64,000 nucleotides of DNA from the IMG/VR virus record IMGVR_UViG_3300028833_000073, positions 64,001-128,000 of that record. One strand, written 5' to 3'. Source of the stretch: a virus. Its lineage: Duplodnaviria; Caudoviricetes. Positions 24,859 to 62,167 of the stretch are shown here, in pieces. The position numbers and the translations under genes are program-made. The stretch's first letter is position 1, and the number at the start of each line of letters is the position of its first letter. A model generated the notes under the pieces. The model saw only the letters and a program-made list of their open reading frames with translations, searched no databases and had not been told where the DNA came from.

Positions 24859-25416
24859 ATGAGTAATAAGTTTAAAGTACGTACAAGCAGTAGTAATGAC
24901 TACTTAATCTACATGGTAACTAATAAGTTCAATAGTAAAGGATACATAGGATATACAACTAAGAAGAGAATAGAAGATGCAATAATACAAAAAATACACT
25001 TAGCAATAAACAAGACTAATCCATACTCTATGTTTGACTTAGATGTACTAAGTACTCTTAAGAAGATAGACTATAACTATGACTTCATCTATAAAGCTTA
25101 CTCTCAATTCTTACTAGATACTTTTCCATGTACTACACCAATAGATGATATCAATGATATAAAGATAGCATATATCTATAAATATCATACTTTTACTAGT
25201 GGTCTTAATGATACACTCAATGGAATCAGATATGATGAATTACTAATCTTAGTACAAGAGATTGTTGACATGTATCTTCATGGAATGCCAATAGAGAAGA
25301 TAAGTAATACAATATTCAAACCTGAAAGGATGATAGAGATAATACTGAAAGCTAACAACATAGACATCAGTAATCAACCTAAGTTAATAGATCCTCCATT
25401 CAAGATTGTAATCTGA
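24859..25416 (+). CDS. GIY-YIG-like protein (degenerate) with C-terminal HTH-like region
   Basis: YLIYMVTNKFNSKGYIGYT...IAYIYKYHTFTSGLN; the expected catalytic Glu position appears to be Lys. Confidence 0.65.
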   Translation: MSNKFKVRTSSSNDYLIYMVTNKFNSKGYIGYTTKKRIEDAIIQKIHLAINKTNPYSMFDLDVLSTLKKIDYNYDFIYKAYSQFLLDTFPCTTPIDDINDIKIAYIYKYHTFTSGLNDTLNGIRYDELLILVQEIVDMYLHGMPIEKISNTIFKPERMIEIILKANNIDISNQPKLIDPPFKIVI

Positions 25417-25523
25417 TAATACTCATACTATAATAAAATACTACCATCGTTAAGATGGTAGTATTTTATTTTTTATAAATTGATATACATCATCATAAGA
25501 TATAAAAGGAGGTAAGATACCTT

Positions 25524-26882
25524 ATGATAATCACATTTGAAGGTCCTGATTGTTCAGGTAAAACTACACAAGCAAAATCATTAGTGGAGTACATTAATAA
25601 GTACTATCCTAAGTTACATGCAATATATAAGCACTTTCCTAATCATGATAGGAAAGATATACAATTGATTCTACATGATAAGGATGCTAATATTAGTAAT
25701 CCTTATTACATTGCTAGTAGTTATATGAATGAATTCTTCTATGAATTCAATAGTAATGAAAAGTATACTACAGCAGATAACAAAGTAACACTAACATTCA
25801 AAGAAGCAGCTAGAAGAAAGGATGTAGTATTAGTATTAGATAGATACTACTATTCTTCTCTTATCATGTGTCCTCATTGGCCTAACAAGTATGACAATAT
25901 CAAGGATATGACTAGTGAACAAAAAACACAGAAGAATGAATATATTAAGAATCTCTTTGGAGTAACTGGATTACTACTACAGAAGTTTGAATTACCTAGA
26001 CCTGATCTTACTATTGTACTAATTCCTGATAAAGATGAGATGATTAAAAGGATCAGTGAGAAGACAACTATAAAAGAATCAGATAAGTTTGAGACTATAA
26101 AGAAAGCAGAAGAGTTCTATTATGATTACTTAGATTCTATTCTTGATGGTGATGCTTCTATCTATCATATGAATGGAGAGTGGTTTAATCCAGTAGTAAT
26201 CAACAATAGAAAGACTGCATATATTCCTACATCAAAGAAGACTAGTAAGATGGATTCAATTCTACAAGACTATTGTTCAGATATCCTAGATAATACAAAG
26301 GATATCAAAGAAACTAAACTGATGGTAGAAGGAGTATTTGAATCATATCTAAAGACTATCTGTAGAATTACTAATGATAATGAAGAGAAGTCAATCTATA
26401 TCTTCAAAGTAAGTAAGAAAGATCTTGATATATATGAATCTTGTTATAATGATCCTAAAGATAGTGAAGAGACTAAGGAAGAAGAACATGCTACTGGATT
26501 ACTCAATCCAGTAAAAGAATATGACCTTAGTAAGAAAGAAGAGGTTGCATTCTGTAAGATTGGACATCCTACTCCTTACAATGTAATCAATTCTCCTGAT
26601 AAGTATATCTTATCTAAACAATATCCTACTAATGAAAGAGTAATGGTACTTAATATCTTACTTAAGATTCTTAGAGCTGACTATACTAAAGATCAGTTCC
26701 CATCTGCTAAGATTGATGAAGTTACTAGATATATCTATAGGAAGATTGAACAGTTACATGCAGGTTCTGTAGTAAGTACGGAAGGTGGTAAGGTTGAATA
26801 TACTAGAGAAGATAAAGAAGACAACTCAGGAGATCAACCCATTGAAGGAACAAAAGCAGAAGGAAACAAAAAAGAAGAATAG
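25524..26882 (+). CDS. tmk: Thymidylate (dNMP) kinase with long C-terminal extension
   Basis: IITFEGPDCSGKTTQ P-loop; VLVLDRYYYSS; PRPDLTIVL. Confidence 0.85.
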   Translation: MIITFEGPDCSGKTTQAKSLVEYINKYYPKLHAIYKHFPNHDRKDIQLILHDKDANISNPYYIASSYMNEFFYEFNSNEKYTTADNKVTLTFKEAARRKDVVLVLDRYYYSSLIMCPHWPNKYDNIKDMTSEQKTQKNEYIKNLFGVTGLLLQKFELPRPDLTIVLIPDKDEMIKRISEKTTIKESDKFETIKKAEEFYYDYLDSILDGDASIYHMNGEWFNPVVINNRKTAYIPTSKKTSKMDSILQDYCSDILDNTKDIKETKLMVEGVFESYLKTICRITNDNEEKSIYIFKVSKKDLDIYESCYNDPKDSEETKEEEHATGLLNPVKEYDLSKKEEVAFCKIGHPTPYNVINSPDKYILSKQYPTNERVMVLNILLKILRADYTKDQFPSAKIDEVTRYIYRKIEQLHAGSVVSTEGGKVEYTREDKEDNSGDQPIEGTKAEGNKKEE

Positions 26883-27771
26883 TAGTTTAAAGACATTGTT
26901 CTTATGGGATAATGAACCTCTACTCTATAGAGATAATAGAGGTTCTTTTATATGGGCTATACAGATGATAAATCCTGATGAGAGTATGCTAGAGGATTTG
27001 GTTACCTTCTTAGAGGTAACACCTAAGCATGTTACTCATAGATCAGGATCTATTCTATCCATACTTATCTCACTGAACGTATACGATATAATGAACATCC
27101 TAAGAGATAATAGATTCCCATATTCTAGATTGTATAATGAATTTGTTAAGGATGTAGAGTTAGAAGTTCCTGGTAAATATATTCATAGCTATATAACAAA
27201 TAATTTACATTTAGAATTTGCTAGAGAAGAGATAAAACCACAGACTGATGATTACTTCAATGAGAATGATAAAGAATCACTAGCACTGAAGGATAAGTAT
27301 GATATCAAGTATGTATCAGAGAATGTAAAGGTTGTAGGATTAGATATACCTAAGAATATCTATGAGAAGGTAACTAACTTCATTGGTCTTTTAAATCCTA
27401 ATGGTATAAGCTATAATACTTGCTTACAGCTATGCAGGATAACTTTTGATATCACTAACATAGAAGATAGAGACTATGGGAGGTCATTCTCATATAACTT
27501 CCATGATCTATATACTATGATGAAGGATGAACTACTTAATGATGACCCTGGTCCTTATATTGACCTTAAGTATTTACTAGAATCTGAGGGAGAAATAACT
27601 ATTGACTTAGATAATGATCTTGATATATCCAAGATCAATCCTTGGTCAGATAGTGATGAAGATGTTGATGATATTCTTAGTACTGAAGAAGAGATTATAG
27701 ACTCATCTAAAGTACCCGATTCAAACTACATTGGTAAAGAAGGAGAGAATAATAATGGCAATGAGAAATGA
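26785..27771 (+). CDS. Hypothetical protein
   Basis: 328-aa ORF in the operon; start uncertain (overlaps tmk). Confidence 0.7.
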   Translation: MVRLNILEKIKKTTQEINPLKEQKQKETKKKNSSLKTLFLWDNEPLLYRDNRGSFIWAIQMINPDESMLEDLVTFLEVTPKHVTHRSGSILSILISLNVYDIMNILRDNRFPYSRLYNEFVKDVELEVPGKYIHSYITNNLHLEFAREEIKPQTDDYFNENDKESLALKDKYDIKYVSENVKVVGLDIPKNIYEKVTNFIGLLNPNGISYNTCLQLCRITFDITNIEDRDYGRSFSYNFHDLYTMMKDELLNDDPGPYIDLKYLLESEGEITIDLDNDLDISKINPWSDSDEDVDDILSTEEEIIDSSKVPDSNYIGKEGENNNGNEK

Positions 27772-29300: not shown

Positions 29301-29314
29301 GGGAGAGATTTATA

Positions 29315-30302: not shown

Positions 30303-30393
30303 AATTTTGGGTACCTTAATGGTACCCTTTTTCTTTTTCTTAAAATAGCCTAGTCAGAACATACTGGTAATGATTAAGAAGGGAGCGATACAT

Positions 30394-31185
30394 ATGTCGA
30401 GAGATGTCTTGACAATGAATCATGTCGACCCGATAGATTTCAATGTAATAAGAATTCCATCGCTTCCTGTGTATGATAGAGAAGACTACGACTTCTATGA
30501 TGATAAAGACATAGATAAGTATATAAAGGATGTAGAAAGAGTAGCGAGGAATTCATTTGAGTATCATCGGTTCATTAAGTTCTTACGTACTCGTCTAGAT
30601 ATGAATAAGTGTTCATTCTACGAGAATGTATCTAATAGATTTGGTGATACAGATTGTTTTAAGATAAAGATACATATTCATCATGATCCTTTCACTCTAT
30701 ATGAGATTGCTAAGATAGTATATCTCAAGAGAGCAAAGAGACATGAGAATCTAGATGAACAGTTGACTGCATGTGAAGTGATGCTACTACATTATAACCT
30801 TTTAGTAGGACTCATTCCACTAGCAGAGACTGTACATGAGCTAGTACATAATCAATATCTTTTTGTTCCAACTACTTCAGTTTTTGGCTTCTATAGAGAC
30901 TTCATGGAAATGTATGATGAGTACATAGATCAAGAACTGAAAGATAAGATTGAAAGATTAGAAGAGTTTAGTGCTTTATATGAGGGTGAAGATAAATTCA
31001 TCTTAGATAAGCATTTCCTTTATACTGATCTTTCAGGAACTTATAAACTTCCTAAGTATGAAGATGTTAAAGCTTTTCTTAATGAGCGTATATCTGAGAT
31101 TGATAATGGATTACCATCTCCACACGTGGAACCTAAACCAGTAAAGAAGTTAGTAGATCCACCGTGGAAGATAGTGATAGATTAA
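30394..31185 (+). CDS. HNH/His-Me-finger-like protein (paralog of 44080-44871)
   Basis: NKCSF...IHIHHDPFTL...LIPLAETVHELVH; late-type promoter AACA-TACTGG-TA at 30358. Confidence 0.6.
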   Translation: MSRDVLTMNHVDPIDFNVIRIPSLPVYDREDYDFYDDKDIDKYIKDVERVARNSFEYHRFIKFLRTRLDMNKCSFYENVSNRFGDTDCFKIKIHIHHDPFTLYEIAKIVYLKRAKRHENLDEQLTACEVMLLHYNLLVGLIPLAETVHELVHNQYLFVPTTSVFGFYRDFMEMYDEYIDQELKDKIERLEEFSALYEGEDKFILDKHFLYTDLSGTYKLPKYEDVKAFLNERISEIDNGLPSPHVEPKPVKKLVDPPWKIVID

Positions 31186-35531: not shown

Positions 35532-36266
35532 ATGGCCACGTATACAAGACTTGATATGCAATCACAGATATTTGAAGAAGGAGTTTTGAATATATTTACA
35601 GATGCCAGTATCAATCCCTTGGGAAATAATAAATGGGATGGATGTGCTGGTGCAATACCTGTAACTTATGATCATAAGATTAATAATCTTACGGAATATA
35701 TACCGATGATAAGAGTGTTTAGAGATTGCACTAATAATATTGCAGAACTTTCAGCCATAGAGATGGCATGTGAGTTTGCAGTAAGCAATCAATCTAAGTA
35801 TGTCAGAATCAATCTCTTTAGTGATTCTGAGTATAGTATTAAGACGTTGAAAGAATGGATTTTTAATTGGGCCAAAGTATCATGCCGTGATGGTATTGAA
35901 GGCTTTAGAAATCTTAGAAAGAGTGATGGTAACTTAGTAAAAAATCATACCATCATCATAAATATTATCAACAAGATTTTGTCAATAGATCCTAGACAGT
36001 GTGGCTTTAATGTGTACCATGTAAAGGCTCACACTAACGGGGACAGTAAGAAAGTACAAGAGCAGTTTAAGAAAGCTAATAAGATATCTATTAATATCTT
36101 AGATGCTGATATCTTAGCTTACTACAATGACAAAGTAGATAATCTTACAAGAGATATCTTACTTAGCAATGAAAGTAGTTATTATGAGTGTGAGGTAGTA
36201 CCATATGCAATACTTCCTTATGCTTTTAATAAATATAAGAGAATTATAGGTTCAAGGAGGTTCTAG
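35532..36266 (+). CDS. rnhA: Ribonuclease HI
   Basis: IFTDAS, TNNIAELSAI, LFSDSEYSI, HVKAH and YNDKVDNL catalytic motifs. Confidence 0.9.
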   Translation: MATYTRLDMQSQIFEEGVLNIFTDASINPLGNNKWDGCAGAIPVTYDHKINNLTEYIPMIRVFRDCTNNIAELSAIEMACEFAVSNQSKYVRINLFSDSEYSIKTLKEWIFNWAKVSCRDGIEGFRNLRKSDGNLVKNHTIIINIINKILSIDPRQCGFNVYHVKAHTNGDSKKVQEQFKKANKISINILDADILAYYNDKVDNLTRDILLSNESSYYECEVVPYAILPYAFNKYKRIIGSRRF

Positions 36267-36598: not shown

Positions 36599-36670
36599 AA
36601 TAGGTTTCTAATCTATCTAGAATATATAAGTATAGGTAATTTAATTGTTTATGAAAGGATGTATGGTACA

Positions 36671-37804
36671 ATGGCAAGAAAAGTTATTAAGCTTACTCCG
36701 GAGCAGGTTAAAGCTCTTGAGGAACAGATCAAGAAGATTGAAGGATTCGATGTAAAAGTCGAAGAGAAGAATGAGAAACCTGATGAGTTTATCAATGTTT
36801 CTGATGTTACAATGGATACTTGTAGGTCTATCAAAGTACCTGGTTGTAACGATAGCGCTCTTAGGAATGATATCTATGCAAACGCATTTGATATTGATAA
36901 GCACAATTATGACTTTATCCATACTTTGCGTGATAAGTCTGATTATATGAATAAGGCAATGAAGTATTTTGAGAATGAGTATGAAACTACTATCAATGAT
37001 TCTGGTATTGGTAGTTGTGATGTTACTGTGGAGGATAAGTTTAACTCTTATCCCAGTGGATGTATGCTTGGAGCTGTAATTCCTGGTATCAATAGTGCTA
37101 TTAGGTTTGTCGAGGCCAATAACTATTTCACTAGGGATATCTCTCCTGATGAGAAGCAGTCTATTATCAATTCTCATAATCTGAACTTCAATACCACAGC
37201 AAATAGTATTATTCGTACTATGGTAGATGATATTCAGAATGCTTTCTCTGGGCTTATCGTCAAACATGCTCTTACACAGGAGGAGATGGATAATCTTCTT
37301 AAGACTAAACAAAGGCTGAATACGCTTCTTAAGCAAGATGAAGTTGTTAATTTTACGCCGTCTGATATTTCTAGCTATTCTGGTTGGACTATGCCTACTA
37401 ATAGTACGGAGCTCTTCACCTTGTTTACCACTCTTAGGAACTTCCATAGTGTTACTAACTATAATGACGAGGATCAGATCATTATTAGTGGTAATACTTT
37501 GAACTACTATGTCGAGTGTATCTACAATTATGCAACGACATCGTTCTTCCAATTCCTTCGTTACAGGTTTGCTGATAATGAGTATAAGGAAGACATTATG
37601 TCTCGTATCTCTCTTGAGTTTGAGACGAACTTTGGATTTGAGATGCGTCGTTATATTGCAGCTACTCTTAAGGAGATTGCAAGGATTGCGACTATCTATC
37701 TCATGAATCTCAAAGTCCTTAATAGTTATCCGAAGACGTGTGAAAAGTATGAAGAGAGTAATCGTTTGATCAATCCTCCTTTCCATTATAGGCCTGGATT
37801 CTGA
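36671..37804 (+). CDS. Hypothetical protein with C-terminal RLINPPF motif
   Basis: About 377 aa; RBS GAAAGGATG. Confidence 0.75.
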   Translation: MARKVIKLTPEQVKALEEQIKKIEGFDVKVEEKNEKPDEFINVSDVTMDTCRSIKVPGCNDSALRNDIYANAFDIDKHNYDFIHTLRDKSDYMNKAMKYFENEYETTINDSGIGSCDVTVEDKFNSYPSGCMLGAVIPGINSAIRFVEANNYFTRDISPDEKQSIINSHNLNFNTTANSIIRTMVDDIQNAFSGLIVKHALTQEEMDNLLKTKQRLNTLLKQDEVVNFTPSDISSYSGWTMPTNSTELFTLFTTLRNFHSVTNYNDEDQIIISGNTLNYYVECIYNYATTSFFQFLRYRFADNEYKEDIMSRISLEFETNFGFEMRRYIAATLKEIARIATIYLMNLKVLNSYPKTCEKYEESNRLINPPFHYRPGF

Positions 37805-37856: not shown

Positions 37857-38576
37857 TTGGTTTTCTACAATAATAACCAAGGTAACTTTCCTGCTTCTCC
37901 TATAGGTAATCAGGCAATGGCATCACAGCCATTGCCTATGATTCCTGTGGGACAGCAGCAGGGTTATTCAACGTACAATGGGTACTTTAACCCATGGGAA
38001 ATACAAAGGAGGCAAGATGAACAACTAAAGAATTATAATAACAATATCAATATGCAGATTGATATATATAAGAGACTATATATCAATTCATGTAAGAACC
38101 TGGGCATATATGTGGATGAACAAGCAGTAGATGAGTACTATAATCAGTTTAGACCATCGACTACTAGTACATATGATATGCTCAAGAAACAAAAGGAAAT
38201 AGCCGAGGAACAAAAGATAGCAGAAGCTGTACAGAGGGCCAATGGTCAAGGGTCTATGTTAGCTAATGCCCAGATGAAGATCTGGTATGATCAAGAAGAA
38301 AAGAATCAAAAAATATATGAAGGTAAGTCATTGCAAGAACAGTATGAAGCATTGACAGTGGCTGCCTTCGATATGAGAATGGATGAGGCTAAGAGACAGA
38401 ATAAGAATATGAAAAATAGCTATAACAATAGTGCATATCAGAAGCTTATAGCATCTAATGGTCAAGGACTATTCTCTACCAATATAGATGACATGGAAGT
38501 TACCTTACCCAATAACTTGTCTGGTACTTATCAGTCTAGAAGGGCTAGGTTCCTTGCAGCAGTCTTAGGGAAGTGA
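37857..38576 (+). CDS. Hypothetical Q/N-rich protein
   Basis: TTG start after AAAGGAGG; early-type promoter at about 37820. Confidence 0.75.
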   Translation: MVFYNNNQGNFPASPIGNQAMASQPLPMIPVGQQQGYSTYNGYFNPWEIQRRQDEQLKNYNNNINMQIDIYKRLYINSCKNLGIYVDEQAVDEYYNQFRPSTTSTYDMLKKQKEIAEEQKIAEAVQRANGQGSMLANAQMKIWYDQEEKNQKIYEGKSLQEQYEALTVAAFDMRMDEAKRQNKNMKNSYNNSAYQKLIASNGQGLFSTNIDDMEVTLPNNLSGTYQSRRARFLAAVLGK

Positions 38577-40342
38577 TGTCTATGAAGTTTGATCCATTAG
38601 AGTTATTCTATGCTAAGCAAAAGACGAATGCATTGAATTTCGACTTTGAAGGATTAATGGGTCCTATTATTCCCAATCTACTTCCACCAAGTATAGATTC
38701 ATATCTATATAGCTTAGCTACCCATCCAAAGTATTCATCTAAAATAAAGATGAAGTTTGATTTGATAGACAGAGCTGTAAATGATTATGGATTCGTATTG
38801 ATGGGAAGAGGGACCAATCGTTGCATCTACAAACATCAGATTGATGGTAGGATAATGCTTAAGATAGGGTTTGATAGAGCAGGTATTACAGATGCTTATA
38901 AAGAACTCTATAACATGAACTATCTTAAGCCATTTGTTACAAAGTGTTTCGATGTAAGTCCCACTGGTACTATAGGTTTATTCGAGAGAGTCATTCCGAT
39001 AACCTATAAGGATGAGTTTATATCTGTAGCTGGGGATATATTCGATGTGATAACCAAGTGTTTCATCGGTAAGTATATCCTTGCAGATATAGGTACTAAG
39101 TTTTATATGAACTGGGGGATAAGAAAGGGATTTGGTCCAGTTCTTCTGGACTATCCTTTTATGTATCTTCTAGATGGAAGAAAGTTACATTGTATCAATC
39201 AAGTTCCGTCACCAATTGGCATGGTAATGTGTAATGGCTTAATAGATTATGATGAGGGTTTCAATCACTTGAAGTGTACTAAGTGTGGCAAGACCTACTT
39301 TGCATCTGATCTAGCCAAAGAAAACAAAGAAGGCCAATTGGAAATATATGGTGCAAGATTAGGAGGAAAGATGAAAATGTCTACAGGAGAGTATTACATC
39401 AATGGAAAGAAAGTAAGTGAGGAAGAGGTAATGGCTCGTTATTTCGGAGATAAGTCCAATAACAATTATCCGGATAACAATAGGGTATTTGAAGCTGCAC
39501 CACCTCCAGTTCCGCCCAGTTATGAAAGGAAGAGGGCAGAAGCTGAGAGGAAGATGAGACAGCAGCAGAACAATACTCCTCGTCAGAGCCAGCCTCATAA
39601 TAACAATAATAGGAATGATCGTCCTAAGGAAACAAGAGTAGAGTATATGTATCGTTACGCTAAGTATACTCTTAAGCGTATGATAAAGGCATCTCGTAAT
39701 GAACTCGATCTTGGTAATATCGCATATGCTCTTGTTGATCTTATCATGAACACGAATAATAGTAGTGGTCAGAAAATTGAGAGGAAGGAAGTAATAGCAA
39801 AAGCTCAAGAGCTTGCTCAGGAAGCATTGAATGAGTTTGTTGAGGATTGTAAGAGGTTGAATAATAATCCTACACCTCCTAATAATCCTCGTCCTCAGCC
39901 GAATCCTGCACAAGCAAAGATGCAGGAGAATGTAAAGAAGACAGTAGTAGAACCTACACAGACAGCAACATTATCTCCGGCTCAATCTGTCGCTATTGTA
40001 CCTGAGATTGTTGAAGCCGAAGTAGTAGATGATTCTCCTACTGAAGAGGATGATGCAGAGATTCTGAGTGAAGTAGAACAGCTTCATGCAAATGATGCTG
40101 ATCAGGTAAATGATATCGTTGATGCTATTGATAATCTTAGTACCGCTGTAGAAGAAGGTAAGAAGATTGCTGAAGCAAACAATGGTATCTCTCCTACTAC
40201 TCAGGAAGGATTGAATAGGATTAAGCAGATCAATGACATGGGTAATAATGCACCCCATGTAAAGAAGGAAGAAGCAAAGCCGGCACCTAAACCAAATCCT
40301 CCTCAGAAGATTCCTGGAACAGGTATGGCTTTCACTTTCTAA
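38573..40342 (+). CDS. Protein-kinase-like protein with Zn ribbon and disordered C-terminus
   Basis: MGRGTNRCIY (Gly loop), IMLKIG, YKE, LADIG...NWG, VLLDYP; C..C and CTKC Zn ligands; P/Q/N/E-rich tail. Confidence 0.7.
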   Translation: MMSMKFDPLELFYAKQKTNALNFDFEGLMGPIIPNLLPPSIDSYLYSLATHPKYSSKIKMKFDLIDRAVNDYGFVLMGRGTNRCIYKHQIDGRIMLKIGFDRAGITDAYKELYNMNYLKPFVTKCFDVSPTGTIGLFERVIPITYKDEFISVAGDIFDVITKCFIGKYILADIGTKFYMNWGIRKGFGPVLLDYPFMYLLDGRKLHCINQVPSPIGMVMCNGLIDYDEGFNHLKCTKCGKTYFASDLAKENKEGQLEIYGARLGGKMKMSTGEYYINGKKVSEEEVMARYFGDKSNNNYPDNNRVFEAAPPPVPPSYERKRAEAERKMRQQQNNTPRQSQPHNNNNRNDRPKETRVEYMYRYAKYTLKRMIKASRNELDLGNIAYALVDLIMNTNNSSGQKIERKEVIAKAQELAQEALNEFVEDCKRLNNNPTPPNNPRPQPNPAQAKMQENVKKTVVEPTQTATLSPAQSVAIVPEIVEAEVVDDSPTEEDDAEILSEVEQLHANDADQVNDIVDAIDNLSTAVEEGKKIAEANNGISPTTQEGLNRIKQINDMGNNAPHVKKEEAKPAPKPNPPQKIPGTGMAFTF

Positions 40343-40408: not shown

Positions 40409-41089
40409 ATGATGTTTAAAGGGGATATCTTTATAACGGATGATTTCCAACTTGCAACTACTCTTAGCTATGATAGTAGATATAGAGTTTTTGCATTGAT
40501 GGATAACTATGAACTAGAGTTTGGTAAGAATAGTAATGTTATTGGTATGCCGTTCTTACTTCCTCCATACAATGCATTAGAGGAAGAGAATATTGGTAAT
40601 CTTCAAAATTTTTATAATATTTACTATCAGCACCTGGCTAGCGCTGAAGCAGATAATTATATCACTACATTACTTACAGGGCTCTATAGAGGTTTCAATA
40701 TCCTTTTCTATGTTCCTAAGGATGAAGCCCAACTAGAGTTCAGTAAAGCACTGTTGAGATATATCCATGATGTATTTGGAGTCACTATTGGTAGCAAGGA
40801 TAACAACCAATGTGGTTTCAATGTAGCCTTTGAAGACACAGTAAGAATCAAGATGTACTTCTATGGTAATATTCCTGCTATGGATCTAGTGCAGAACATA
40901 AAGAGCAAGATCATGGATCCATTTATCTGTGATCGTATGTGTAATGATCTCGGTATTAGTCCTGGTAATAATTCTGTAGAAGCTATAGATCAATATATTA
41001 GAAACTATAGGAATAGCCAGAATGTAGTACAAGTACCAGCTCCTAGGAAACTTATAGATCCTCCATTTAAGATAAGAGGATTTGAGTGA
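40409..41089 (+). CDS. Hypothetical protein (paralog of 41099-41638) with C-terminal KLIDPPF motif
   Basis: LLPPY...YYQHL...NILFY...LLRYIHDVFGV. Confidence 0.75.
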   Translation: MMFKGDIFITDDFQLATTLSYDSRYRVFALMDNYELEFGKNSNVIGMPFLLPPYNALEEENIGNLQNFYNIYYQHLASAEADNYITTLLTGLYRGFNILFYVPKDEAQLEFSKALLRYIHDVFGVTIGSKDNNQCGFNVAFEDTVRIKMYFYGNIPAMDLVQNIKSKIMDPFICDRMCNDLGISPGNNSVEAIDQYIRNYRNSQNVVQVPAPRKLIDPPFKIRGFE

Positions 41090-41098: not shown

Positions 41099-41638
41099 AT
41101 GATCTTAGTAATGAATAGTGAATTCTTCATTCAGAATATAAAGAATGATATGAAGATTATGGATAATTCATTTGTTCTTAGCTGGGATTCTCAGTTAACT
41201 CCAGAGGCAGCAGGATGTCCTATTTGGAGTAGTAGGCATCTTGTTCCTCCAGAGGGAATTAGTAATGACTATGATTATACTAATTACTTATACTTCAATG
41301 ATAAGGCTATGGAGTTAATAGCTATCATTGGGTATATGATTAAGACGAATAACATAGTTATCATTCTCTCTAATGGTAATTATGCTGAAGACTTCCTATA
41401 CATGTTCTTGAAGTTTATCCAGAACAGATATGGAATAGTGTATAGAGATGTGAAGTGTCTTGAAGATATTCCTGAAGTTCCAGGAGATACAGATAGCTTT
41501 AGCATTCAAGGACTCTATAACTTCAATGCCTATGACAATAATAGAGTTGTTAGGTATATAGAGTCACTTAAGATATCTGATCCTGACTTTAGGATGTTCT
41601 TTGAACAGAATCTGAATGAGAAAGCAGCAGAGCTATGA
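41099..41638 (+). CDS. Hypothetical protein (paralog of 40409-41089)
   Basis: LVPPE...YTNYL...NIVII...FLKFIQNRYGI. Confidence 0.75.
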   Translation: MILVMNSEFFIQNIKNDMKIMDNSFVLSWDSQLTPEAAGCPIWSSRHLVPPEGISNDYDYTNYLYFNDKAMELIAIIGYMIKTNNIVIILSNGNYAEDFLYMFLKFIQNRYGIVYRDVKCLEDIPEVPGDTDSFSIQGLYNFNAYDNNRVVRYIESLKISDPDFRMFFEQNLNEKAAEL

Positions 41639-42426
41639 AGCTATATGAGAAGGTGAATTATACTCAAGATATAGCGCTCTTAAAGAATGCTAATATCTAC
41701 GAGTATGATATTGCTAAGGCTAATATATCTGTCCTCTTAAATAGGGGACAGATATCATCTTCTCTATATGACTTTCTTTTTAATCAAGACAATATGGTTA
41801 GAAAGATCATGGTAGGTAATATGGAGAAGACTAATAAGAATCTTATTAAAGAGAAACAACAAGGTATCATTGATGCTAAGAAGTATCTCTTTGAAGCTAA
41901 TCATATAGATGATAACGAAGTTCTCTCGATAAAGAATGATGCTGTATTCGTTACAAGGGAACTAGATAAACTTGAGTATGGTAATGCTAGATTCACACTA
42001 AGGAATAGATATAATCTCTTTATTAGAATCCTAAGATTACAATTCTTCTATCTTCTAGATCAAGTGAATGATATAGAGGTATTAGATATAAAGGGTATAA
42101 GAGATGAGGTTATAGAGAAGCAAGAGGAGTATATGATTGACTTCATTAAGACTCTATTGTTTACCTTTAAGACAGAAGGATCTGATAAGACATTGCTCTT
42201 ATTAAGAACATTCAATCATAATTATATGAATAAGAAGTTAGATATCAACTACTATAGGGACTTATACACAGGTAAGTTCCCATTGAATACAGATAGTGTA
42301 GTCTTTTCATATAATGCAGATGCTCTTAGTCAAGACCTTGTAGATTCTGTCGATATAGTAAACAATGGATCATTCCTTAGAGCTATATCGAAAGTATTCT
42401 ATACTGAGTATCTTAGGCAGAAATGA
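41635..42426 (+). CDS. Small DNA-polymerase-palm-like protein
   Basis: IYEYDIAKAN (motif A-like), VLSIKNDAVFV (motif C-like) and IKGI; no exonuclease domain. Confidence 0.55.
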   Translation: MKLYEKVNYTQDIALLKNANIYEYDIAKANISVLLNRGQISSSLYDFLFNQDNMVRKIMVGNMEKTNKNLIKEKQQGIIDAKKYLFEANHIDDNEVLSIKNDAVFVTRELDKLEYGNARFTLRNRYNLFIRILRLQFFYLLDQVNDIEVLDIKGIRDEVIEKQEEYMIDFIKTLLFTFKTEGSDKTLLLLRTFNHNYMNKKLDINYYRDLYTGKFPLNTDSVVFSYNADALSQDLVDSVDIVNNGSFLRAISKVFYTEYLRQK

Positions 42427-43678: not shown

Positions 43679-44083
43679 ATGACAAAGAAAGACTTTAGAT
43701 ACTTTGCCATAGCTAAAGAGGTATCTAAGAAATCTACTTACAATAGAGTCCATATAGGGGCTATTGTAGTAGGTAAGAATAAGATACTTGGTGAAGGAAC
43801 AAACATGGTTAAATCTCATCCTCTACAAATGAAATATAACAGACTCAATCCAGATATGAAGGAGAACTATGCACATGCAATTCATGCCGAAGTATCTGCT
43901 ATAGTTCATACAGGTACAACTAATCTAGAAGGATGTATCATATATATCTATAGAGAAGATAGAAATGGAAAGATTGCTATGTGTCGTCCTTGTATTGGTT
44001 GTATGCAGCTAATAAGAGCTGTTGGTATTAAGATTATCTATTACACTACCAATGATGGTTTCTGTAAAGAAGTTATAGGTTAG
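43679..44083 (+). CDS. Cytidine/deoxycytidylate deaminase family protein
   Basis: HAE and PCxxC zinc motifs (IHAEVSAI; CRPCIGC). Confidence 0.85.
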   Translation: MTKKDFRYFAIAKEVSKKSTYNRVHIGAIVVGKNKILGEGTNMVKSHPLQMKYNRLNPDMKENYAHAIHAEVSAIVHTGTTNLEGCIIYIYREDRNGKIAMCRPCIGCMQLIRAVGIKIIYYTTNDGFCKEVIG

Positions 44084-44871
44084 AATGCATTACCTTGAAA
44101 CATAAAAGCATCATACATACTCACTAGGTTAGGATCATATGGTTGAGCATCTGGTAATGATACTAGTCTATCATTATACTCAGACCAATCATAGATCTCT
44201 TGTCTTATATTGAGTATATCATAGTTTAGACCAAAGTCATTCTCTTCAAACTCCTTAAGATAGAATAGTATCTTATAGGCTATATCCTTACTAATTCCAT
44301 ATCTATATTCCTTCAAGAAGCTATACCAATCACCAAAGCACATCTCAGGAGGAATAGATAGTTGGTCAGTATTATGATATAACTGATGAGGAGTAAGTGA
44401 TAACATTACTAGTTGGACCTTATGCTCCTTATGCACTTTCTTTAACAGATAGCATAGTTGCATAGAAGTTAGTCCTTCATTAGATGTATTAGTAATATGA
44501 CTAGTGATGATATAAGCAATATCAAAGATGTTTAGCATGTTGTGATGCATCTCTAATGTAGCCATCTCACTAGTTATATTACCATGTACTTGGCATCTAT
44601 TTAGTCCTAGCTCCATAAGAAAAGCTTTATAGTTCTTATACGTTCTTGTCTTTCTGAAGTTGCTTATAGCATTCTCCAGAAACTGTCTATAGTCGTCTAC
44701 GTTAAGTAGGCTCTCTTTTGTTTGCTTAAACTGTAAAACCATAGGATCATTAGCACAAGAGATAAGAGGATTGTTTCCTGGTACGAAGTAGATATTTGGC
44801 ATACCCGTATTACTCTGACCAAGTGCCTCTAATTGTTGTAGTTTTGCTAATGAACTATCGTATTCATTCAT
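44080..44871 (-). CDS. HNH/His-Me-finger-like protein (paralog of 30394-31185)
   Basis: NRCQV...LEMHHNMLNI...LVMLSLTPHQLYH; late-type promoter GACT-TGTTAA-TA. Confidence 0.6.
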   Translation of the reverse strand: MNEYDSSLAKLQQLEALGQSNTGMPNIYFVPGNNPLISCANDPMVLQFKQTKESLLNVDDYRQFLENAISNFRKTRTYKNYKAFLMELGLNRCQVHGNITSEMATLEMHHNMLNIFDIAYIITSHITNTSNEGLTSMQLCYLLKKVHKEHKVQLVMLSLTPHQLYHNTDQLSIPPEMCFGDWYSFLKEYRYGISKDIAYKILFYLKEFEENDFGLNYDILNIRQEIYDWSEYNDRLVSLPDAQPYDPNLVSMYDAFMFQGNAF

Positions 44872-44948: not shown

Positions 44949-47900
44949 GTGGCTTATCAACTTAAGAAGATATTTAGTAATAATCCTTTCTTAGATCATA
45001 TAGTATATCAGTCTAAATATATTGCACTTAACTGTGTATGCAAGGATATCAATAAAGCAAATAAGTATGAAACAGCAGAGACAGCTAGAAACTTCGATAT
45101 CTATCTAGCTTGTACTCGTAATCCAGATTGGTTTCTATTTGATAGTATTCCGTATGAAGTTATTAAGAAAGCTATAGGTCATAAGTATAGTGATAGACAG
45201 ATAAGACGGATATATGTTCCCTATAAGGATAATATCCCTGAAGAAGATAGACCAGCAGTATTAGCTGAAATGGCTAAATACTATATAGAGCATTTTGAAG
45301 AGAAGAATGATTACTATAGAGAGGTAATGGGATATAGACCATCATATAGTAAAGAGAGAATCTTATTAGAAGATTATGGATTTGAGAATGATCTAGTAGC
45401 TCAGCAAGGTAAGTTATATACATATCTAGATGAACTACCAGATTCTATTCTATATAATCTTATAACCAATGGTACCATTCAGAAGATTATCAATGATTAT
45501 CCTGATGAGAAATGGGTAGCTCATATCCCTATGAGAATAGACACTAGTGAAGATGGTACTGATACATTATCTCTCTACATGGTAAGACATGCAGAAGAGT
45601 TCGATTTACTATATATGCCATCAGATGCAGATGAGATCATAAGAGAACAGTTTGCAGAGAGATATGAGTTAAACCAAGACTATATTCTAGGTAATGTATA
45701 CTCGGAAGCAATGAAGATAGGATCTGAAGATTACTATGATAACTTCATACAGATCCTTATCATAACCTGTACTATGTTAGATATGTTTGATACAGTACAA
45801 GATCATATAGTGAGAAGAGATATCTTCGATGCTAGGTGTATTGAATATATCTTTGAGCAGTACAATGTACCTTACTATAGTGAAATTCCTATTAGATACC
45901 AACAAGCTATGCTTAAGAATCTAAATACTCTAGTGAAGTTTAAGTCAACGGCTAGATGTATGATAGATCTTTGTTCATTATTTGGCTTTGAATCATCTCA
46001 GATCTTCCAATTCTATATACTTAGAAAGAGAAAGATGAATGAGAATGGAGACTATATCTTTAATTATAAGACTATTATAGTTCCTAATGATGTAGAGGAA
46101 GTAGTAAAGCAATCAAGTGTCTATACTATCTCCAATACTACTAAAATATTCATCACTATCAATCCTCCTATAGTGAATTTCTATGAAGATGTCAATCATA
46201 AGATTCTAGTATTCCTTAATGGAGAGCTAGTAGATCCTAGTCTATATGATGTAGATGAAGAGAATAATAGAATTATCTTCCATAATAGCAATGATATCAA
46301 TGAAGAAGATATTACTTTAGAATACGTTTATACTAATCCAGATGGTACAGATATAAAACAAGATACTCAAGAGATACTAGTATCAGATTTAGATATAGAC
46401 GGAGGTGCTAATCCGGTATATATCAGAATAGAGTTTCCTATTGGATATAATGATGCAGAAATTAAAGGAATATCAGTGTTTATAGATGGAGTTGAGCTAG
46501 ATGATACATATTGGACTACAGTTGGTGGATTGCTAATGATAGTACGTGGTAATCTCATACATGACACCTATAAGATAACGATTAATTTTACATGGAGAGA
46601 TCCAGATTATATAGATTTAATTAGACAGAAAGAAGGAGCAGAGTCTCAGAGCACTACTAATCATGTTATAGCTATTGAATATCCTATAGATCACTTTGGA
46701 GATGATGAATCAGATAAGATTATAGTTACTACAGAGAATGGTAAAGTATCTCCAAATGACTATATTATCTCAGGTAATAAGATATTCTTCATAGGAGAAG
46801 ATATCTTAAGAAACAATGATAAGATTATACTTATATTCCAGCACGGTACTGACCCGATACAAGAATACACTATACAATACTATACTAGAAATATCCTTAA
46901 GACTTATGTCATTCTTAATTACCCAGTAGAGAACTACTTCTCTAGTGGTAATAAGGTTGAGGTATGGATTAATGGACAGCTACTACCAGAGCAATATTAC
47001 TCAGTCTATGATGATAAGCTCTATATAGAAGATGAGAATATACTAAAGAATTATGAAGACATAGAAGTCAAGTATTTATACAATAACAGTGAAGAGGAGA
47101 TAAATATTCCAGATCATTCTATCATCATGAGTGATGAGTCTATGATATATACATCATCTCAGAGCATATATACTCTTCATCCTCCTGTAGAGAATTACTT
47201 TGATCTTGGCGGATATATCTTTGTCATACTAGGTACCTTATTACTACATGAAGACTGTTATGATATTCTACCTGAGTCTAATCAGATCTTTATCCATGCC
47301 GATGTACTAAATCATTATAAATTTACTAAAGATATGAAGATACTATATATGTACTCGGAGGCAATAGATCTTAAGAAGAAAGATGTAGATGTAATATCAA
47401 CTCAGAAGGGACAAACATCCTTTATTATACCAGAACCATTTGAAGGTTACTATGAAGCAGGAGGAAGATTCTTCTTATCTACTGGTGGAGGATATATACA
47501 TGAGTCTAGATACCATGTAGAAGGAAATACTCTTATCTTCAATAGTCCTAATGATGGTCTTCCAGAAGGTAAGACATTAACCTTCCATTTCATCTATAAC
47601 TTGTTTAGCAATGTAGGTATAAGATATGAGAATGTAATTCTTACAGCTACTAGTAATCATCAGACTACATTTACTATACCTTTACCTTATGAGAATTATA
47701 TAGCAGATGGTAATCCTATATTTGTAAAGATTCGGGGATCATATCTTGATCCTCAGTTCTACGAGATTCTTAAGAATCAAATAGTCCTTCATAATAACTA
47801 CAGTCTATATCCAGGAGCAATACTAGAACTAGAGTTTGTATATGGAACTATTAAAGAGATTAAACATACTATGGTTGCTGTAAAGGCTACTATTACAGTA

Positions 47901-50900
47901 CAACAAGATTTCAATATACCTTTCCCTTATGATGGTTTCTTAGTAAGAGGTAATAAGCTTAGAGTTAGATATAAAGGAATAGAGTATAGAGAAGGTGTTG
48001 ATTACATAATCAAGGGTAATATGTTAGAGATCTTCTCTGTAGCTAAAGCTATTCCTAAGGATGGAATATTAGAGTTCCACTTCTATACCAATGTGAATAA
48101 CGAGAACCATGTAACAGTAAGTGAAGCACAAGTAAAGATGTATACTAATGACCAAACAAGATTCAGTATTCCAGTACCATTCTATAATTACTTCAATACA
48201 GGTAATAGAATGATTGTTACTCTAGGAGGATTATTTGTTTCTTCAGATACATACCAGCTAGTAGATAATAGACTAGAGTTCACTGATCCATCAGTCATAG
48301 GACTCATCAAAGATAGAGAACTTAACTTCACCTTTATCTATCATACTATCTATCTCCAGTATAACAAGCAAGTCACTATAGACTACGACACCTATAGTGT
48401 CGCAGAAGAAAAAGGAAGAGAAGATGGATCTTTGAAGATAAAGATACCATTCCCATTTGAAAATTACTTAGAGCTAGGTAATACATTTGAGATGAGAGTA
48501 GATGGTATTACATTGATACCAGAGGAAGCATATGATGTAATTGATAATGAATACGCTATTATCTTTAAACCAGATATCTATGTATATCCCTATGGTGACA
48601 CAATACAGTTTGTCTTCACATATTCTTCTAATGGTTATGAAGAGAAAGTAGTAGAAGACTTAGAGAAGGATGTGGAACTTAAGTTCGTTAAAGTACCTAT
48701 ACTAGAGAATCCAGATAATTACCTTAAAGATGAATCTAACTATGTAGACTATGACACTATAACTAATGCTGATCCCTCATGGGATGGTGATTACTTACAT
48801 GAAGAAGTTAAAGAGACTCTAATAGATAGTGAATTCTCTTATAATAGAACTAAGTACTTTGGTCTTACTAGCCTTATGTCCATGGGTAAGTTAGCATATC
48901 AGTTACCATACTTCATGAATATCATCTTTGATAAGTTTAAGACTGAAGAGAGGCTTAAGTTAAGATTACCATACATCAATACTGGTCATCAGTTTAGATT
49001 CAATGATGTATTGACCTATATGATGGCTCTATCACATAGGTTCATTGGAGTAGAGGATGATATTCCTACTATACAGAAGTCTCTATATGTACATGGTTTT
49101 AACTTTGAAACAGATCTAGCTACTATATCAGCTCATATCCAAGATAAGCTAGGTAATGATGGTGGACTAAACAACTATAAGATCTCAGATAAGTATAAGC
49201 AGTTTAAGAAATATGAACATCAGATTCCTACATACAAGGAGCTAATAGATCTATATACAACCAATACTGATATCTATAACCATGTAGTAGATGAGATGAT
49301 TAATGCGGAGAATAAGATAATCTATGATATCTATAAGAAGATATATGACTCTCTTATGATCATTAAGTATTCTAAGCAATACTTTTCAATCAATAGAGAA
49401 GTACAACCAACTCTTACAGCTTGGCTTAGATATAGAGATGAGTTCTTATATGATTCCCTCTTACAAGTAGATGCTATAACGGAAGAAGAAGAGAGAAAGA
49501 AGACTATATCTACTTACTTAGAAGACTGTGTATATCAGCTAAAGGAATACTTAGATTCTGAAGACTTTAGATATATACTTGGATCTTTCCATGGTGTTGA
49601 TAAGGATGCTATACTGAAGTATCTAGTTACAGTAATAGACTTCTTCAAATCATATAAGATCCAGATATATGATACAGCTATTAAATACGTATTTGATGAT
49701 AAGCTAGAGAATACACTTAGACCTATAGACTTAGCTATCTACTACTCTACATTCGATGTAGAAGCAGATGGTCATACTATCTTCGATATTATAACAGATA
49801 TGTGGTCTAGATGGACTCATAAAGAAAAGATTACAGATGATATCCTTAAAGAACAGATTAAGCTAATCATTAAACAATACTTGAAGATTGATATTAATGA
49901 GAGAATCAATATTATAGATTACATTAAGAGAGCACTAATAACTATGATGCTCAAAGATACCGTAGATATAGAGGAACTAGTCAAACTCTTAATTCAGTTC
50001 TCTATTAGAGATAACTATGATAGTTGTATTGATTTAATCAAGAGTCTAACTTTTATGGCTCCTGAAGATAAAGTAGAAGTAATAGAGAAGATATCTACAG
50101 TGATTAAGCAGTATACTCAATTAAAGAAAGATGATATGTATACGCTACATGAGGAGATATCTAAACTCTTTGCGAATATTGATCTAAAAGATAAGTTAGA
50201 TGTAGTAGAAGAGTTGTATAAGAAGGTATCACTAATTCTTAATGATATTCATGCTGACCCAGAGGATAGAGTCTTTACAACACTATCCACTATGACATTC
50301 TATGACTTTGATGAGACTAAAGATAATGTTAAGATACTAGCTACTATATATAAGCAAGATAAATACAAAGATAAGTATGAGATTCTTTCGGATCTAGCTA
50401 AGTTACTATCTAAGACATCTCCTAAGGATAGATATGATATATTAGACGGTATTATAACTACAACCCTATTAAATCTAAGAGATAATAATAAAATTATCAT
50501 GGATTCCATGGGAGAATACTACTCTTACTCTGACGCTAAAGATTCATTCGAGCTAAAGGAAAATATAAAGAAACTCATCTTCGAGTATATTAATACTCCA
50601 GTAGAAGATAGACTAGATATCAATTCTTATATAGGATCACTAAGAAGTAAGATAATTACTTCTGATAAGCTAGATATCCTACTCAAAGCAATAGTCAAAA
50701 CTACCTTAGAGATATATGATAGTGCTATACGTAACTATGATAGATTAGTATGTAATGTCTCATTTACTACAGAGGACAGAAACAATATTAGAGAAAAGCT
50801 AAGTGTGCTATGTAATACTACTATATGTAAACAATACATGGATAGAATAGCAACAGAGAATGAAATAGTATCTATCTTAAACTCTTATAAGATAATTGAG

Positions 50901-58519: not shown

Positions 58520-58535
58520 CTGTTTTGTCTGTCAA

Positions 58536-58925: not shown

Positions 58926-59047
58926 CTGTACCCTTTCTGCTGTAGTATCATAGTTATCTACAGCTAGATATTATCACTCGTACTAAACATTTCTATCTAG
59001 TACTCGCAATAATAATATATCTTTGAAATTTGAACAATTCACACTTT

Positions 59048-59527: not shown

Positions 59528-59532
59528 TATAA

Positions 59533-59823: not shown

Positions 59824-59878
59824 AATATTCCTCCTTAAGAATAAAAACTAACCCTACCCATATAGGGTAGGGTTCTTA

Positions 59879-60369: not shown

Positions 60370-60453
60370 TTATCAACACCTCACCGCATCAGTATACTAA
60401 TCATTACTAATATATTGATGCGGCAAGATATTGAATCAATAGTTACTTGTTAT

Positions 60454-60801
60454 TTACTGAGCAATATGTTTGAGATAGCGAAGAGCTTTTGTATAAAATG
60501 CCCAATGAAGAGGTTGGCCTTCAGGAGTAACAATCACATTTGCTTCTCCTTGATGTTTGCCCATAATAATCCCGTTCATTGTTACATATCCAACAGTGCT
60601 TCTTGTAACTGTTCCTTCAGTATTGTTCCTACAAGCAACAGTACATGTAAACTCTTCAGGCCACCCTCGTACACTATCTGTATCAAGGTACCAATCACAG
60701 TCACCCTTGGTACTAACATATACATCTTCAGCAGATGCAAAGTTGTTACCTCCAACAAGAATCATCAAACCCAGTACCATAGAAACAAACAGCTTTTTCA
60801 T
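60454..60801 (-). CDS. Secreted/periplasmic protein with signal peptide
   Basis: MKKLFVSMVLGLMILVGGNNFASA|EDVYV; AxA cleavage site. Confidence 0.7.
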   Translation of the reverse strand: MKKLFVSMVLGLMILVGGNNFASAEDVYVSTKGDCDWYLDTDSVRGWPEEFTCTVACRNNTEGTVTRSTVGYVTMNGIIMGKHQGEANVIVTPEGQPLHWAFYTKALRYLKHIAQ

Positions 60802-60939
60802 TTTACTTACCCCTTTCTAAATACCAATACAATTCTATTCTTACATACTATCCTCCTTTATATTAGATTCAGATAAAGAGTATAAGAGTACCAAAAACGG
60901 TACTCTTATATCCTTAATTATCTCATCTATAATATATCT

Positions 60940-61191
60940 CTATTTTTTGATTTGGTCTTTCCAATTACGACACATATCAAACAAATCATATTCTTCTTTA
61001 GTATACCCTTTTGTAGTATTTATTAATGCATTAGTAAGAATCATAGTATCTTTTTTGTGATTGAAGAAGGGCTCCATTAATCCATCATTCCTACTAATAT
61101 GCATTGCATTTCTAGGATTGAAGACAGCGTTAGATGCTCTCTTTATTTCATTATTAATTAACAGCAGAATATTCAATGTATCACCATCAAA
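60940..61191 (-). CDS. Non-virion RNAP beta' (catalytic subunit) exon 3
   Basis: Begins FDGDTLN, completing NADFDGD; ...FNPRNAMHISRNDG. Confidence 0.9.
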   Translation of the reverse strand, partial: FDGDTLNILLLINNEIKRASNAVFNPRNAMHISRNDGLMEPFFNHKKDTMILTNALINTTKGYTKEEYDLFDMCRNWKDQIKK

Positions 61192-62167
61192 CGATTTCTT
61201 CACTCGCTTAGTTTATCACGAGCAGTTCTCTTATGAACTTCTCTAGGATTTCCCTAGAAGTCGAGACTATATCTTCACCATGAGAATTATATAATTCTTT
61301 TAGGTGCTCTGCATTTCGATTTAAGGGACTCTCACCCGCCTACTTAGGCCCTACTCCTGTTGCACTTGTTAAGGGTGCCAAAGGGATAGTCGTTGAATTT
61401 TCAGAATTTATAGTCTTTTGATATACTGGTCCAGTTTCTCCTTTCTTTTATTTTAGCAAATTGATTTTTACTAACTTCAAATCCTACCACTTCACTTATA
61501 TTACCTGAGGTAATACCAGGAACTGATTCAAGAGCTTCACATATTTTGTGAACTTGGTCATTAGATAATTTTGCTTGACTATTAAGTTCACCATTATGAT
61601 CTCCTTTTCCTGCTAACCCAGTTTTAACTGAATGGATTATGTTATTCTGTCTAGTTACCCATTCAAGATTAATATCTCGATTATTACTTTTATTTCCATC
61701 AATATGATTTATATCCATATTGATGTTTCTTGTTTCAGGAGAAAACTCCCATCCAACAAGACGATGTATTGCAAAGTGATGAGGATTATATTCAAAAGAA
61801 TTATCATCTAATCTTACATACCAATATCCATTACGGGATTGATATGATTGCATATATCTCTGTTTTACTGTATCATATACCAGACCATCATTACTTATTA
61901 AATATTTTCCTGTTGTTACATTAGGAAAAGTACATACTCTGAATTCTCTAATGTAAAACGGTGGATTGATCATATAAATTCCTCCAATGCTGATCACCCA
62001 TTTATCGGCGATGAAAAACTTACTATTATTTTTCATCACATCTCAAAACTTATTTCTGCTTACGCTCCTATATAATTTTTATATAGGCATTTGAGCTTTA
62101 GGGCTTTCCAGCTTTTAACAGAGTGTTTTTGCGCTAACTTTTTCAAGCTAGGTGGACGTTGATGTTC
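61192..62167 (-). mobile_element. Group I intron 2 (976 nt) containing an HNH homing endonuclease gene
   Basis: Exon ends in U (GAU) with P1 GGAU/GUCC; terminal G at 61192; P AAGCTGGAAAG, Q GATCAGCA, R TTCAACGACTA, S AAGATATAGTCT; removal restores NADFDGD. Confidence 0.9.
61401..61973 (-). CDS. Intron-encoded HNH homing endonuclease (NUMOD4-like, HNH, C-terminal HTH-like)
   Basis: YLISNDG...NGY; IHRLVG...INHIDGNKSNN...NLEWVT..NN..H; ATG 61973 after GGAGGA. Confidence 0.9.
   Translation of the reverse strand: MINPPFYIREFRVCTFPNVTTGKYLISNDGLVYDTVKQRYMQSYQSRNGYWYVRLDDNSFEYNPHHFAIHRLVGWEFSPETRNINMDINHIDGNKSNNRDINLEWVTRQNNIIHSVKTGLAGKGDHNGELNSQAKLSNDQVHKICEALESVPGITSGNISEVVGFEVSKNQFAKIKERRNWTSISKDYKF

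Follow-up and report, generated by a model that had tools for sequence, protein, structure and literature searches.

A lineage-specific terminal peptide tag on DNA-transaction proteins of uncultured AR9-like phages and its predicted docking role

Introduction

Several unrelated proteins encoded in one stretch of phage DNA share a short terminal peptide, and the question raised by this locus is what the peptide does there. The stretch (hereafter the window) comprises 64,000 nucleotides, bases 64001-128000 of a 158,305-bp IMG/VR virus record (G000; completeness estimate 64%), and the element in question is the tag KKLIDPPFKIRV, with the consensus [KR]L[IV][DN]PP[FW][KRY]I (for example KLIDPPFKI). 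Coordinates are positions in the window unless labelled otherwise. A first-pass annotation of the window had proposed that the tag is a docking motif for a common hub, with a sliding clamp, RNA polymerase (RNAP) or import into a replication compartment or capsid as possible destinations.

The record was compared with G001, a second tagged uncultured viral contig of 57.8 kb, with three complete uncultured AR9-like relatives (G005, G007 and G011) and with a cultured set consisting of AR9, BpSp, S6 and LPJP1. Open reading frame (ORF) sets were greedy longest-ORF calls. No match was obtained when a phage collection was searched by megablast with the window. By tblastn with the helicase of a relative, the group falls beside the Bacillus phages AR9, PBS1 and BpSp and the Staphylococcus jumbo phages, at ~30% identity. 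AR9 homologs were recognized among many window genes, including those of g242, g261, g239, g264 and the intron-borne HNH gene g271 inside g270, which encodes the beta' subunit of the non-virion RNAP (nvRNAP). A protein identical to the product of 36671-37804 (P0125) is recorded on a 296,790 bp contig, and judging from this sequence a near-complete genome of the G000 phage probably exists in that other assembly. A literature search found no paper combining 'jumbo phage' with 'short linear motif'.

Results

A terminal tag on unrelated proteins

Four unrelated ORFs of the window carry [KR]L[IV][DN]PP[FW] 4-6 residues ahead of the stop codon. Carrier 1 (24859..25416, + strand, 185 aa) consists of a GIY-YIG-like N-terminus, a helix-turn-helix (HTH), a linker and the C-terminal tag KLIDPPFKIVI (25381-25413), so that from 25381 it ends in PKLIDPPFKIVI. 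Carrier 2 (30370..31185, + strand, 271 aa), an HNH-like member of the AR9 g242/g261 family (phrog_12252), has the C-terminal tag KLVDPPWKIVID (31147-31182) and ends from 31147 in KKLVDPPWKIVID. Carrier 3 (36659..37804, + strand, 381 aa), for which the true start is probably 36671, has RLINPPFHYRPGF (37763-37801) and ends from 37763 in NRLINPPFHYRPGF. Carrier 4 (40409..41089, + strand, 226 aa) has KLIDPPFKIRGFE (41048-41086) and ends from 41048 in RKLIDPPFKIRGFE. The HNH homing endonuclease encoded in a group I intron of the nvRNAP beta' gene (61401..61976, - strand) bears the tag at its N-terminus, as MINPPFYIR (61950-61976). These are the five sites named in the first-pass annotation, and all were found where it had placed them, the HNH ATG itself lying at 61976 and not at 61973. 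A sixth carrier lies beyond the window (G000:C1:134869-135375), with RLVDPPFRIV at residues 12-21, again N-terminal.

The strict pattern L[IV][DN]PP[FW] occurs five times in the 158-kb record and 5/5 instances lie within 20 residues of a protein end, a zone that holds only 12% of residues. The comparison with shuffled proteomes that had been suggested for the motif gave a mean expectation of 0.013 over 1000 within-protein shuffles (analytic value 0.004). When the relaxed pattern [PV]P[FW][KRYFHT][IYV] was scanned in six frames of the 158 kb, exactly 7 sites were returned, 7/7 of them terminal and all in real genes. Chance as the source of the tag is ruled out by the shuffle count together with this six-frame scan. 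Synonymous codons vary between tag copies at most positions, so selection acts at the protein level, as had been supposed, and the same codon differences rule out a DNA-level repeat or a promoter/terminator as the origin of the tag.

Among orthologs at 51-98% identity the tag is a conserved island while the linker drifts in both length and sequence, which answers the question of ortholog conservation in favour of the motif. Orthologs of carrier 4 at 98, 75, 74 and 51% identity end in KLIDPPFKIRGFE, KLIDPPFYIKF, KLIDPPFTIRF and VPVPWFIRSD, respectively, and those of G005 and G011 have LLFDPLLVV and LLKNPLCEV in register. The carrier 3 ortholog P0126 (85% identity) ends in RLINPPFRYWPGF. The linker-like, disordered setting of the tag was borne out by the AF2 model of carrier 2, in which the mean pLDDT is 80.7 and the tag-holding residues 249-271 fall below 50. 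The peptide is proline-led, predicted to be strand-like and ~8 residues long, within the <~12 residues of a short linear motif. It recurs above chance on >10 unrelated carrier families across lineages, in a disordered location (the carrier 2 tail) and as a conserved island (orthologs P0121-P0124 and P0126); we describe it as a short linear motif, and a docking role for it is probable.

The seventh site of the relaxed scan belongs to a 56-aa protein (12569..12739, - strand) with YNVPWYID (12617-12640) near its C-terminus, one of two weak variants picked out by the first-pass annotation. This variant held up: the protein is the syntenic ortholog of a 57-aa G005 protein ending in KLIDPLVPVIIN, its tail is similar to that of a G001 GIY-YIG protein, DPPFYIDMDYLKS, and the carrier 4 ortholog at 51% identity likewise uses VPVPWFIR. 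The other variant, SPCPPW in the 11993 gene, was dropped, its orthologs retaining S-x-C-P but not the tag of their own lineage. KKLTDPVF, the C-terminus of the G000 2804-4441 product, was also rejected as a lineage tag; by AR9 annotation this product is the virion RNAP beta'-N subunit, and G005 also ends that subunit with [LF]T[DN]PVF, so it is a family feature. As had been noted, the paralogs of carrier 4 (41099..41638, + strand, 179 aa) and carrier 2 (44080..44871, - strand, 263 aa, AR9 g261-like) lack the tag.

Each lineage has its own version of the tag

A degenerate DNA pattern for KL[IV]DPPFK[IM], run over viral contigs, matched one other contig, G001, where the tag is found on further replication and transcription proteins. 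There, the divergent DnaB helicase (PF20307) has 2 C-terminal copies, the nvRNAP beta-C subunit (AR9 g089 homolog) has 4 tandem copies in its C-terminal tail, the NAD-dependent ligase (AR9 g095 homolog) has the tag in an insert near residue 126, and an 87-aa Zn-ribbon protein has it at the N-terminus. Two GIY-YIG+HTH proteins are tagged as well.

In the relatives the corresponding positions carry other peptides. The versions are L[IV][DN]PL in G005 (representative form LIDPL), [DN]P[IL][IL]x[IL] in G011 (LINP[IL][IL]), [CNS]PI[ES]F[VI] in G007 (ICPIEF) and DPPF[KY]I in both G000 and G001. Observed counts against shuffled means were 13 vs 0.66, 7 vs 0.63 and 10 vs 0.09 for G005, G011 and G007, and 10 vs 0.1 and 6 vs 0.1 for the G000/G001 patterns, a 10-100 fold enrichment. 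The flanks differ too, being strongly basic in G000/G001 and acidic in G005.

An unsupervised test was made by taking the helicase-tail 8-mer of each lineage and scoring it with BLOSUM62 against every proteome at a threshold of >= 24. The G001 peptide found 6 other proteins in G000 and 4 in G001, the G005 peptide 7 other proteins in G005, and the G007 peptide 8 in G007; 0-3 proteins were found in foreign lineages and 0 in AR9, a result that holds for 3/4 lineages. Judged by these comparisons, the tag is specific to its lineage, and in the relatives about a dozen protein families change their version together, a property that the first-pass annotation could not see.

Among helicase relatives collected from viral contigs, the C-terminal tails vary by lineage; each is short, hydrophobic and led by a proline, and duplication is frequent. 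Pairs of helicase tail and carrier 2 tail from further lineages read LQPMVTF/LQQMVSF, KKFMTRV/RKVFMVRD and LIYHDES/PIYHDYS x2, and the G007 ortholog of carrier 2 ends in EVICPISFD, the tag of its own lineage. The carrier 2 orthologs L132:1504-2358, L144:1456-2268 and L135:1474-2286 each close with two exact tandem copies of their own peptide (M[IN][NM]PIYHDYS x2, VTPAIYFD x2 and RGMVY x2). No instance of the general tag pattern was found in the AR9 proteome; AR9, BpSp, S6 and LPJP1 show no DPPF excess and no tag, and these cultured relatives are also without extra tails on polymerase, ligase and RNAP.

The tagged families are replication, recombination and late transcription proteins

Family identities were assigned by homology to annotated AR9 genes, in several cases by BLASTP. 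The DnaB-like helicase (AR9 g007) is tagged in 4/4 lineages and the SF2 helicase (g156) in 3/3; the NAD ligase (g095) is tagged in 3/3, within an insert absent from AR9. On the N-part of the DNA polymerase (g132) the tag lies in C-terminal extensions of ~100 aa, which hold 3 copies in G007 and G011; the tagged nvRNAP subunits are beta-C (g089), beta'-C (g154) and a gp226-like promoter subunit. The Mre11/SbcD-like nuclease (g002) is tagged in G005 only, the Zn-ribbon protein encoded just upstream of SbcC in 3/3, and the carrier 4 family in 3/4, while a small protein adjoining a RecD-like helicase (the family of the G000 protein at 134869) is tagged in 4/4, always at the N-terminus. The list is completed by the carrier 2 (g242) family and by GIY-YIG/HNH homing endonucleases. 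Across lineages the same end is tagged in the same families, often with 2-4 tandem copies; no tag was found on the primase, the polymerase C-part, RecD or SbcC. A clade-specific family of 239-284 aa encoded near the helicase was considered and set aside; by its motif it is a putative PD-(D/E)xK nuclease.

This list bears directly on the suggestion of capsid import, which is not supported. The carriers are homologous to enzymes of replication and transcription that are not part of the virion (nvRNAP g089, g154 and g226, helicases g007 and g156, ligase g095), and no virion proteins were found among them.

Nuclease carriers

Three of the window carriers had been credited with nuclease folds, and the three assignments differ in strength. 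The intron HNH is solid: the gene scores 7e-8 against Pfam HNH_3 and starts at the ATG at 61976, with a GGAGGA Shine-Dalgarno sequence 6 nt before it. Its AR9 homolog g271 is without the tagged N-terminal add-on. A group I intron core (62335..62563, - strand; Rfam RF00028, 73.3 bits, E 7e-18) lies directly upstream of the tagged gene. A second, sub-threshold intron-like match (61241-61479, - strand, 34.6 bits) overlaps the 3' end of the HNH gene; the two matches may represent a single split core or a pair of introns.

Evidence for carriers 1 and 2 is moderate. Carrier 1 is sub-threshold against Pfam GIY-YIG PF01541 (E 0.051, 14.3 bits, cut-off 22.6), and is homologous (BLASTP E 1e-5) to the G001 GIY-YIG+HTH protein that terminates in DPPFYIDMDYLKS and itself scores 9.6e-11 in Pfam. 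For the carrier 2 model, VIA-align gave Z 5.8 to the GVE2 HNH (rmsd 2.4 Å over 84 aa) and Z 5.5 to T5 SciA, with further HNH enzymes lower in the list, and H104, H105, H141 and H156 are invariant in the family. Foldseek against the PDB returned nothing for carrier 2 at E <= 0.001, and Pfam was likewise negative. The further idea that mobile endonucleases had acquired the tag was upheld and extended, with one GIY-YIG and one intron HNH protein tagged in G000 and two GIY-YIG proteins in G001.

Comparison with known docking peptides

In phage T4 the gp45 clamp activates late transcription through gp33 and gp55. The gp45-binding tails of T4/RB69 (on gp43, gp33, gp55, ligase and RNase H) are the closest parallel in arrangement, being short terminal peptides common to the polymerase, ligase and late-transcription components of a large myovirus, and the present tag would likewise couple late transcription to replication. 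The parallel extends to the placement of a terminal peptide on the polymerase N-part (3 copies in G007/G011), ligase, helicases and RNAP. In contrast to the gp45 tails, the tag extends to RNAP core subunits and to helicases, nucleases and homing endonucleases, is often repeated 2-4 times in tandem, may be N-terminal or lie in a loop, and varies between lineages. There is no sequence resemblance, and no gp45, PCNA or beta-clamp family or clamp loader was detected in the three complete relatives.

Clamp-binding peptides conform to QL[SD]LF or Qxx[LIM]xx[FY][FY], and neither the tag nor its lineage variants fit either consensus. Like the PIP-box, the QL[SD]LF peptide and the client motifs of RPA70N/RPA32C, the tag is a short motif in disordered termini, of the kind by which one hub reads many unrelated DNA enzymes; unlike these, which are near-universal across domains of life, it is private to a lineage and co-varies over all clients. 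[KR]L[IV][DN]PP[FW]xI matches none of them.

The C-terminal tip of the single-stranded DNA-binding protein (SSB), DDDIPF, and the acidic, Phe-ending tails of T7 gp2.5/gp4 offer a second comparison. Cultured AR9-like phages have DnaB-like helicases that finish in this style, with DSGIPF, GGVDF, FDDF and DDIPF (L018:1441-3126, L019:1477-3213, L020:1423-3165 and L021:922-2694), and the uncultured clade has replaced it with the tag; AR9 g161 ends in DGGINF. An acidic run closed by a C-terminal aromatic residue with a free carboxylate is not what the tag presents. It is not acidic in G000/G001, where the flanks are basic; 2-6 residues follow it; N-terminal and ligase-loop copies exist; and it lies on the clients and not on the SSB. 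The putative Whirly-type SSB of the clade, described below, keeps a separate acidic tip, [ST][LI]DD[IL][DE].

A further parallel is Rhc of chimalliviruses, an RNase H fused to a clamp-derived domain (PMC13648687; bioRxiv 10.64898/2026.10.01.755736). As a non-ring, clamp-derived accessory subunit of multisubunit-RNAP jumbo phages that serves both DNA polymerase and late transcription, Rhc is a precedent for a cryptic receptor. The RNase H of the present clade differs in being only 222-244 aa long, with no clamp domain, and the partners of Rhc are not reported to carry a peptide motif. What is new here is a tag that changes in step across about a dozen families in uncultured AR9-like jumbo phages.

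Candidate receptors

Candidates for the receptor were ranked, with a cryptic processivity or clamp-like protein placed before the Whirly-fold SSB of the clade and something else third. The best positional candidate is a ~200-aa gene that overlaps the stop codon of the polymerase N-part gene in G005, G007 and G011 (190-277 aa: G007 75919-76551, L084:15919-16551; G011 197089-197661, L065:17089-17661, - strand; G005 47520-48353, L070:7520-8353). It is fast-evolving, with only 22-36% identity between the three copies over ~60 residues. The family was not detected in the four tag-less cultured phages, which have a DnaQ-like exonuclease at that position, and its profile had no match in Pfam or among PDB sequences.

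The second candidate is a family with a Whirly/PUR-alpha fold (264-284 aa; G007 183540-184334, L090:3540-4334; orthologs L074:979-1833 and L063:16977-17807). The AF2 model has a pLDDT of 83, and Foldseek gave E down to 4e-5 against PUR-alpha, WHY1-3 and MRP1/2; the protein has Asn/Gly-rich disordered tails besides its conserved acidic tip. The family counts 442 clusters in the representative library; G005, G007 and G011 all have it, and it was undetected in AR9, BpSp, S6 and LPJP1. This predicted single-stranded DNA-binding protein is probably the SSB of the clade.

Two proteins were tried as clamps and set aside. The RNase H (35532-36266) was considered as an Rhc-like clamp fusion and consists only of RNase H and a short tail. 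The 263-aa AR9 g239-like protein (41635-42426, + strand) has invariant motifs that resemble a PolB palm, with Atlas leads to DNA_pol_B at 0.85, and is not clamp-like. This protein belongs to a large viral family of uniform length (283 homologs) with no Pfam match, and its invariant motifs Y-D-I-S-K-x-N-I, K-N-D-A-V-F and K-G-I are reminiscent of the family-B polymerase palm. A 589-aa protein (38573-40342, + strand), 44-49% identical across four lineages, is always encoded upstream of carrier 4 and the untagged paralog.

Discussion

We consider it probable that the tag is a co-evolving docking motif, recognized at replicating DNA by a single receptor that the phage itself encodes. In this proposal the tag, carried by a disordered tail at either terminus or by an inserted loop, would tether the DNA-transaction machinery of the phage (replicative helicase, polymerase N-part, SF2 helicase, ligase, Mre11-like nuclease, three non-virion, late RNAP subunits and several small adaptor-like proteins) to this single partner. 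Tag and receptor would co-evolve, giving each phage lineage a private version, and homing endonucleases would have copied the tag and ride the same platform. A co-evolving receptor encoded by the phage is favoured over a conserved host hub because the tag is uniform within a genome and divergent between lineages, and the change of flank charge from basic in G000/G001 to acidic in G005 suggests a receptor of complementary charge. As with the T4 clamp, docking would also link late transcription to replication. The AR9 nvRNAP can initiate on single-stranded DNA, and the authors of that work suggested that late promoters are exposed by replication (PMC5449584), which makes a coupling with the fork plausible. 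The docking idea of the first-pass annotation fits the list of carriers; a classical sliding clamp as the hub is not supported, no clamp or clamp loader being detectable by Pfam.

Several observations weigh against this proposal. Pfam models of gp45, PCNA, the beta clamp and the clamp loader (PF02916, PF00705, PF00712 and PF13177) had no match in G000, G001, G005, G007 or G011; the controls gave their signal, and a divergent or monomeric clamp could be missed. Pfam SSB models had no match in the same five genomes. Fast change of a motif common to >10 clients is unusual for hub networks. The lineage patterns were built from the instances themselves and are partly circular, which the unsupervised test mitigates, and in that test the G011 variant was degenerate and did not discriminate. 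G000, at its estimated completeness, is without helicase, ligase and polymerase genes, so that the wider network is drawn from G001 and orthology.

Other readings of the same peptide were weighed. It might be an address label that brings the carriers into a replication compartment or condensate, or keeps them there; its reader would then be a transporter or shell protein and not a DNA-bound hub. The carriers are exactly the set to concentrate around phage DNA, the tags are terminal, and multivalent tandem copies in disordered tails recall low-affinity motifs of the FG or DPF type. We know of no linear import signal even in nucleus-forming phages, which tells against such a label. AR9-like phages stand outside the Chimalliviridae, many jumbo phages have no chimallin (review PMC13282480), and no compartment gene was identified in this analysis; we regard the address label as unlikely. 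Somewhat less likely again is recognition by an enzyme, with the tag as a docking site or degron through which a phage-encoded kinase or protease/unfoldase regulates the carriers as a group. Terminal tags are typical of AAA+ degrons, and the 589-aa protein directly upstream of carrier 4, a cassette syntenic in four lineages, is faintly kinase-like (Atlas 0.85-0.87, a lead only). The lead lies below the reliability line of the tool, however, and Pfam and PHROGs give nothing for this protein; neither the tandem copies nor the tag in an internal ligase loop suits a degron well, and a late RNA polymerase and replisome must persist through infection.

The peptides could also act on one another, pairing as strands of a beta-zipper and co-assembling the carriers without a dedicated receptor. 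The alternating hydrophobic pattern after the proline and the tandem copies would suit such pairing, which, being homotypic, would need a genome-wide uniform sequence; but the core prolines (DPPF) disfavour regular beta pairing and the oppositely charged flanks of G000/G001 and G005 suggest a complementary receptor, so we hold self-association to be quite improbable. The lowest probability is given to a host hub, by which the tag would bind the host beta clamp, SSB or RNAP and differ as hosts differ. In its favour, no phage clamp or SSB family is detectable by Pfam, and G000 and G001 have one tag in common although identity between the proteins that they share is only 26-39%. Against it, the bacterial clamp-binding consensus is not matched by the tag; host hubs are highly conserved, so that a tag uniform within a genome and widely different between lineages would be unexpected; and the cultured relatives on Bacillus, Staphylococcus and Listeria are without such tags.

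A broader version of the docking proposal, which we offer tentatively as one possibility, is that a whole clade of uncultured AR9-like phages wires its replisome, recombination nucleases and late RNAP to one fast-evolving cryptic receptor, either the clamp-like candidate encoded where the polymerase gene ends or the Whirly SSB. The lineage-private 'barcode' might insulate this wiring from co-infecting relatives and the host, and homing endonucleases might copy the barcode to reach replicating DNA.

Multisubunit-RNAP jumbo phages have been reported to be without a classical sliding clamp (PMC7824862; PMC13648687). The tag bears on how their replisome coheres and on how late transcription is tied to replication in these phages, and its presence on polymerase, helicases, ligase and three nvRNAP subunits provides an experimental handle for fishing out the organiser. 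Tags that change in step over a dozen proteins constitute a natural dataset for the co-evolution of a hub and its motifs, and lineage-private tags may explain incompatibility between related phages.

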